In this document: one piece after another, positions 15,332 through 57,526 of the stretch | How the letters are laid out: the number at the start of each line of letters is the position of its first letter | Position numbering within the stretch: the stretch's first letter is position 1 | NCBI RefSeq assembly: GCF_003018255.1 | Contig: NZ_CP027440.1 | From: Escherichia coli | GTDB lineage: Bacteria; Pseudomonadota; Gammaproteobacteria; Enterobacterales; Enterobacteriaceae | DNA: 64,000 nucleotides | Reading direction: 5' to 3' (one strand) | Notes under the pieces: generated by a model | Told to the model about the DNA's origin: nothing | What the model saw: the letters and a program-made list of their open reading frames with translations, nothing else | The model's database searches: none | Program-made: the position numbers and the translations under genes

Positions 15332-15378
15332 TGTGGTTTACTGCAAACATCCGCCAGTTAACTCCCGGTGTTACAGGG

Positions 15379-16281
15379 TTAGTGGCTTTGCGCGATAAGA
15401 TCGTCTGGTGAAAGTCGGGTCACCATCATAACTAACTCTCGGTCTAAACCTCTCTCCAGCATCTCCTGAGCAATACGCAGGGCTTCTTCGCGTTTGCCAA
15501 GAATTAATCCATCATTCCGCCCTTCTTCACGTAATCTGTCAGCAATAGTCATCAGTTTCTCCTTTTCTTGTGGTGCGCGTTCCGCTATCTCACCAATAAA
15601 TGCACGGAAACGCTGGGCATCCCCCGTTTGTAATACGTAATTAAACAGGGCTTTTAGCTGTCTGTCATTAGTGTTCCCTGTAACTAGCAGCGAAACAATT
15701 TGGTCGACTAATCCCAACAGATCGCGCTGACGAATATGTTTCTGAATTAACTCCAACAGCGCCATTTTGCGATGTTGCATAATCTCGTCATCCGGCACCA
15801 CGGTAATATCTACCAGCGGAAAAGCCGATGAATAAATTTTGCGGGCTATAGCAGGCTCGGCAAATTCATCAAGCCAGCAAAGTGAATAAGGATAAGGACT
15901 TCTGCAACCATGATAAAACAGCATCGGGATCACCAATGGAAGCTCTTTATAGCCTGCATCAAGATGGTTTTGCATCGCCGCAATGGAATAGCGCATCATG
16001 CGAAAAGCCATTAATTCTTCCGGCTTACTTTGGTGCTCTATCACTACATAAATATAACCCGCTCCCTCCTGCGTTTTCACAGACCACAAGAGGTCGGAAT
16101 AATATTGCCGCAGGTCTTCATCAATAAAACTGTTTGGTTCCAGTTTTAGCGTTGTTAAATCACACAGTTTGCGCAGCGGCGCGGGAAGATGAATATCAAT
16201 AAAATCCCGCGCGGTGTCTGGATGGCGTAAAAAAGATTTAAATACCGCATCATGCGGCGTGGAAGTTGTCGATATTGTCAT
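15379..16281 (-). CDS. rpnB: Recombination-promoting nuclease RpnB (YhgA-like PD-(D/E)XK family)
   Basis: 300-aa ORF; recognised as YfcI/RpnB; synteny between yfcH and hisP. Confidence 0.85.
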
Positions 16282-16477
16282 GGCGTTCCGTCACCCCTCA
16301 AATTTAAGATGACGCGACAATAACCACGATTAATACCCAATGCAGCAGGCAGTTTTTATCTTTGGACAGCGAATTCAGAACTATTTTTAGCGGACTGCAA
16401 CTTTTACATTTCAGCGGAAGCTGACTCGCAAATTCCCCTTGAAAATACTCCGGCAGCGTTAGCCACCGGAGGGGGAA

Positions 16478-57451: not shown

Positions 57452-57526
57452 GTCCTCTTAGTTAAATGGATATAACGAGCCCCTCCTAAGGGCTAATTGC
57501 AGGTTCGATTCCTGCAGGGGACACCA
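57452..57526 (+). tRNA. argW: tRNA-Arg (anticodon CCU)
   Basis: 75-nt sequence read directly, matches argW as recalled; anticodon loop cuCCUaa; ends ..ACACCA. Confidence 0.95.

Follow-up and report, generated by a model that had tools for sequence, protein, structure and literature searches.

The window, a 64,000-nucleotide stretch of Escherichia coli DNA (contig NZ_CP027440.1), carried the rpnB gene on the minus strand at 15379..16281. Based on its open reading frame and its RefSeq identity, the gene encoded RpnB-L, the full-length RpnB of 300 amino acids, a PD-(D/E)XK nuclease toxin. The DNA of the gene was 100% identical to the rpnB annotated by RefSeq in several E. coli chromosomes. As in K-12, the gene was flanked by yfcH, folX and yfcG at one end and by hisP, hisM and hisQ at the opposite end. 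The protein was 98% identical to the K-12 RpnB, which consists of 296 aa, and the substitutions V74A and L118I were located in the nuclease part.

Residues 8-209 (15655..16260, minus strand) formed the Transposase_31/YhgA-like nuclease domain (Pfam PF04754, E=2.2e-91), covering positions 1-202 of the 203 in the profile. The protein also scored 189 bits for NCBIfam TIGR01784, whose cutoff is 52. A PADLOC search gave no model matching either RpnB-L or the small protein RpnB-S described below. The residues D11, D63, E82, Q84, R94 and D165, which were mutated in RpnA by Kingston et al. and found to matter (PMC5350276), were all retained in the RpnB of the window. Since these nuclease residues were kept, the toxin half of RpnB is probably active.

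Directly after hisP and upstream of rpnB, a hairpin resembling a terminator was located at 16448..16471 (minus strand); 7 of its 10 pairs were G-C, and a T-rich run came after it. The hairpin suggests that transcription of rpnB-L begins at a promoter of its own instead of reading through from the his transport operon. The sole RNA gene detected in the window was a tRNA-Arg with the anticodon CCT at 57452..57526 (plus strand); tRNA genes such as tRNA-Arg are frequent integration sites of genomic islands.

Internal start of rpnB and its product

The initial annotation had pointed to a ribosome-binding site and an in-frame start inside the 3' end of rpnB, and every detail of that description was found in the sequence. 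On the minus strand, the codons of K240 and E241 spelled the Shine-Dalgarno hexamer AAGGAG at 15564..15559, which is the same in K-12. It was followed by a 6-nt spacer AAACTG (15558..15553) and by an ATG at 15552..15550, which was M244 of RpnB-L in frame 0. Translation from this codon to the shared stop codon at 15381..15379 gave a protein of 57 aa, RpnB-S, encoded at 15379..15552 and identical to the C-terminal tail of RpnB-L, exactly as had been quoted before. The internal start and its ribosome-binding site thus lay where the nuclease domain gives way to the C-terminal tail.

The frequency of the motif was compared with chance. A single AAGGAG-N4-9-ATG was seen on both strands of the window, when a first-order Markov model predicted 2.37 +/- 1.59, so the number was not beyond chance expectation. 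Hence, the case for the internal start was based on conservation and on published experiments. The RNA around the start (135 nt) folded less stably than 195 of 200 shuffled sequences (z=+1.77), and such weak structure would fit an initiation region that is open at the rpnB-S start.

RpnB-S has been described in K-12 as an antitoxin produced from within rpnB by Zhong et al. 2023 (PNAS 120:e2307382120; PMC10400941). An alignment count showed that, over the stretch beginning 56 nt before the ATG and ending with codon 10 of RpnB-S, the window was the same as K-12 at every base except for a synonymous change in codon 2 (ACT vs ACC). What was published for K-12 thus applies directly to the initiation signal of the window. 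Further, residue 29 of the K-12 RpnB counted from M244 was an aspartate, in agreement with the D29 of the published RpnB-S numbering. As this numbering fits only a start at M244, the published start of RpnB-S is the ATG at 15552..15550. In the RefSeq records of E. coli, rpnB was listed alone, with no CDS for rpnB-S. The K-12 RefSeq annotation carried mcrB-S as a CDS of its own inside mcrB, the five experimentally detected RpnS proteins were not annotated there, and ypaA, which encodes RpnE-Ss, was flagged as a pseudogene.

The region upstream of the internal start was searched for promoters. A standard scan of the minus strand over 15565-15900 gave no site, and the best promoter-like match of a relaxed scan was ATGACA-N17-TTTAAT at gene positions 614-642. 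It consisted of a candidate -35 hexamer ATGACA at 15668..15663 and a candidate -10 hexamer TTTAAT at 15645..15640, both on the minus strand. The standard scan did not return this match because position 2 of the -10 hexamer was a non-canonical T. Transcription from the candidate promoter was predicted to start near 15633, resulting in a leader of ~80 nt. The match occurred at the same position and with the same sequence in rpnB, rpnA and rpnE, and was near-identical in rpnD. As both hexamers lay in conserved codons (N-D-R and L-F-N, respectively), conservation could not separate a promoter from a constraint on the protein. By dRNA-seq, a transcription start has been detected within every rpn gene (PMC10400941), and ATGACA-N17-TTTAAT may be the internal promoter of the short rpnB-S transcript to which those data point.

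The RpnB-S of the window was 42% identical to RpnA-S (E=2e-10), and the 49-aa RpnA-S of the structure 7th0 aligned over its whole length with RpnB residues 244-299. An AlphaFold2 model built on an alignment of eight S proteins had helices at residues 3-33, 38-45 and 49-56 and a mean pLDDT of 81.8. The best Foldseek match of this model in the PDB was 7th0, with a probability of 1.00, a TM value of 0.74 and 42% identity. All subsequent matches had E>1 and were weak, to small DNA-binding helical domains. RpnB-S is accordingly predicted by the model to be a small domain of three helices, the first of them long, as in the RpnA-S of 7th0. A Pfam search with the 57-aa protein gave no match.

Designed pentatricopeptide-repeat proteins were the top PDB sequence matches to RpnB residues 257-289 (15415..15513, minus strand), with E values down to 8.5e-15. 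These matches were rejected as an artefact: in the best of them, u83142, each single stretch had E of at least 31, and the score was the sum of ten near-identical repeats. The match reflects a resemblance of helical hairpins and not homology.

Conservation of the start and variation of the tail

The five K-12 paralogs were compared over the run located 6-7 nt before the equivalent methionine. The run was AAGGAG in rpnB, rpnE and rpnA, AGGGAG in rpnD and GGGAGGGGAG in rpnC. The free-standing ypaA (RpnE-Ss) carried AAGGAG-N6-ATG, and a Shine-Dalgarno sequence with a GGAG core was common to all five paralogs and ypaA.

Rpn genes were present on 4,844 plasmid records. Eight plasmid homologues of 28-55% identity were compared, from Pantoea, Salmonella, Klebsiella, Serratia, the Yersinia pestis pMT plasmid, Arsenophonus, Providencia and a Rickettsia endosymbiont. 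All eight had a start codon at the aligned column and a purine-rich, Shine-Dalgarno-like run 5-9 nt upstream, so that the start codon was found at this column in 14 of 14 members of the Rpn family. The residues encoded over the run differed among the homologues (KE, RE, GE, GD, ED, EG and QE), and in the Providencia homologue the column was occupied by GTG, encoding valine, with AGGAGG before it. The start was thus kept without methionine and the Shine-Dalgarno sequence without the same residues; therefore, this pattern points to selection that would act on initiation rather than on the encoded amino acids.

Within E. coli, the Shine-Dalgarno sequence, the spacer and the ATG were identical in eight sampled alleles. 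An exact 34-mer comprising these three elements was recovered from 4,463 of 5,426 complete genomes, of which ~4,740 had a largely intact rpnB. In E. coli as a whole, an essentially fixed initiation signal is followed by a mosaic tail.

The RpnB-S of the window was longer than that of K-12 (57 vs 53 aa). The difference was located in a hypervariable region of helix 1 that is made up of four-residue units (S residues 11-21; 15490..15522, minus strand) and differed from the K-12 REEG-AMQG-KH by a 12-nt indel and substitutions. K-12 S residues 12-14 (AMQ) were replaced by RNDGLIL in the window, so this stretch was 12 nt longer and contained three xxxG units instead of the two in K-12 (REEG-AMQG). 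The substitutions H17R and D29E (K-12 RpnB-S numbering) were also present. In the published description of the family, insertions of four-residue units begin 8-20 residues beyond the methionine at which translation starts (PMC10400941), and the variable stretch in the window, which started 11 residues after the methionine, fell within this range. The plasmid homologues varied by several units at this position too. A 116-nt query across the variable region was matched over its full length by 1,226 of 5,426 genomes (~23%), with an identity of at least 99% in 360 genomes, and in most other genomes the match ended where the variable stretch begins. Two tail classes were distinguished at the four-residue-unit region in the E. 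coli sample.

A second variable block was found in helices 2-3 at 15415..15456 (minus strand), RpnB residues ~276-289, where the sample contained two forms. One was shared by the window and K-12, and the other, LEKGFDHEVILTL, was found in O157:H7 and CU37RT-2. The form of this block was independent of the form taken by the four-residue units in helix 1, which makes the tail a mosaic produced by recombination. Tail variation of this kind has already been described for the family.

The gene itself was lost from a part of the species. About 680 of 5,425 complete E. coli genomes matched the rpnB region only at its yfcH end, and ~13% of complete genomes were without rpnB. Relative to E. coli Nissle, rpnB formed an insert at 15358..16371 in window coordinates. 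In strain EcN_Sk, the gap between hisP and yfcH was 159 nt (locus L020, 2368-2526) and held a 30-nt remnant of mid-rpnB corresponding to 15837..15808 of the window. The remnant indicates that in this lineage rpnB was deleted, leaving a scar, and was not simply never acquired. In ECNB21-M121 (locus L011, 854-930), IS903B cut rpnB after residue 8 of RpnB-S, and the toxin and the antitoxin each lost their tail. In strain 2020N21-246, rpnB was split by IS1A.

RpnB-S as an antitoxin encoded within its toxin gene

The initial annotation had further read the internal start as the origin of an antitoxin-like inhibitor of full-length RpnB, which is the published model for the K-12 protein (PMC10400941). 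It had named ribosome profiling, immunoblotting of a C-terminally tagged product and a toxicity assay with the internal start mutated as ways of verifying this, and in K-12 all three have given positive results. Profiling with initiation-trapping by Onc112/retapamulin yields a signal inside K-12 rpnB (Fig. 2C of PMC10400941), and RpnB-S is visible on immunoblots after chromosomal SPA tagging (Fig. 2G of the same paper). When the internal ribosome-binding site and start are mutated, rpnB inhibits growth more strongly than the wild-type gene (PMC10400941). Detection of the small product, or disappearance of its tagged band on mutation of the Shine-Dalgarno sequence and ATG, has been reported for rpnA on the chromosome and for rpnB on plasmid constructs. 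Further, RpnB-dependent SOS induction is lowered by RpnB-S and not by RpnA-S, an effect that disappears when D29 is replaced by a stop codon (PMC10400941). RpnA-S forms a complex with RpnA-L and blocks the cleavage of DNA in vitro (PMC10400941). In RpnA-S and RpnC, the dimer is held through the long helix, and the number of its four-residue units sets the pairing between S and L (PMC10400941).

It was therefore considered very likely that the site in the window is where translation of rpnB-S begins inside rpnB, and that the open reading frame is a toxin-antitoxin pair of the RpnL-RpnS gene-within-gene family. We propose that ribosomes would begin at the ATG at 15552..15550 by means of the AAGGAG located 6 nt upstream, probably mostly on a shorter transcript that starts inside rpnB. 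The product would be the 57-aa protein, the same as the C-terminal tail of RpnB-L, with a predicted fold of one long and two short helices like that of RpnA-S. According to the published family model, S pairs through its long helix with the same domain of L, thereby blocking the DNA-damaging nuclease activity. By extension, the 57-aa S would bind the domain of its own L that is identical to it, and the nuclease would stay off until some trigger releases it. The four-residue-unit stretch of helix 1 would tune which S binds which L. By analogy with the K-12 protein, we infer that the 57-aa allele behaves as the K-12 RpnB-S.

One alternative was that RpnB-S is made but that its main role is not that of an antitoxin, the protein being instead a stoichiometric subunit or specificity factor, as is Cas11d in cas10d, or a helix-turn-helix-like regulator. 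HHpred relates RpnS proteins to helix-turn-helix motifs, the L:S ratios vary widely, which suggests regulation, housekeeping roles are possible, and chromosomal RpnB is without a demonstrated phage-defence phenotype (PMC10400941). The weak Foldseek matches to small DNA-binding helical domains agree with a regulator, but none of them was significant. Against this alternative, overexpressed RpnB-S specifically lowers the RpnB-dependent SOS response, the removal of S raises toxicity, and RpnA-S, which forms a complex with RpnA-L, blocks the cleavage of DNA in vitro (PMC10400941). A main role other than that of an antitoxin was thus judged very unlikely. That the hexamer is a side effect of Lys-Glu codons that precede a methionine, causing at most a pause in elongation and no initiation, would agree with its chance-level frequency, its position wholly within coding sequence and the lack of a separate product in RefSeq, but it is scarcely credible given that experiments on the identical sequence in K-12 show initiation and a small protein (PMC10400941) and that the Shine-Dalgarno-like run and the start were kept in 14 family members despite changed residues, including the replacement of methionine by GTG-encoded valine.

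The preferred reading, an antitoxin started inside the toxin gene, was compared with related systems. The closest one is the RpnB-S/RpnB-L pair of K-12 MG1655, which shares with the window the gene, the hisP-yfcH locus, the Shine-Dalgarno sequence, the spacer and the ATG at codon 244, and differs in its 53-aa S with one four-residue unit fewer than the 57-aa S of the window. RpnA-S (7th0) has the equivalent M244 start, AAGGAG upstream of it and a fold matching that predicted for RpnB-S. It differs in its length of 49 aa and in the absence of inserted four-residue units from helix 1 (K-12), and it does not cross-protect against RpnB-L (PMC10400941). The plasmid-borne RpnP2-LS and other plasmid Rpn proteins also combine a nuclease domain, an internal Shine-Dalgarno-like run with a start, and a tail with four-residue units, but they are ~50-55% identical and contain many more repeat units (GIEK/GIQL and similar). 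YpaA/RpnE-Ss resembles RpnB-S in its AAGGAG-N6-ATG and in its beginning, MTIAERLRQEG, whereas it is encoded by a separate open reading frame downstream of rpnE and not within the toxin gene. Outside the family, Cas11d in cas10d (cited in PMC10400941) and mcrB-S in mcrB (annotated in K-12) are likewise separate C-terminal proteins produced from an in-frame internal start. Both are unrelated to RpnB-S, and Cas11d is a required subunit and not an inhibitor.

Possible specificity classes and significance

The one extra unit relative to K-12 could alter the specificity of S/L pairing, as judged by analogy with the RpnC repeat experiment (PMC10400941). It was tentatively proposed, as a possibility that we regard as somewhat doubtful, that the 57-aa and 53-aa types may be distinct specificity classes without cross-neutralisation, and that the mosaic tail together with recurrent gene loss may reflect ongoing diversifying selection. 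If this is true, the result obtained with the engineered RpnC carrying one additional repeat would extend to natural RpnB alleles. Phage defence has been demonstrated only for the plasmid homologue RpnP2 and not for chromosomal RpnB (PMC10400941); a role of RpnB in phage defence may be inferred by analogy with RpnP2.

The internal start of rpnB-S, correct as read here, was already published for the same gene in 2023. The increment provided by the present analysis is descriptive only and consists of the longer tail allele in the window, the near-fixed initiation signal, the mosaic tail and the loss of the gene from ~13% of genomes. rpnB-S, still left unannotated by standard pipelines, is a genuine second coding feature, and it was located correctly by reading the sequence alone. 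An antitoxin encoded in frame inside its toxin gene forces the co-evolution of both.
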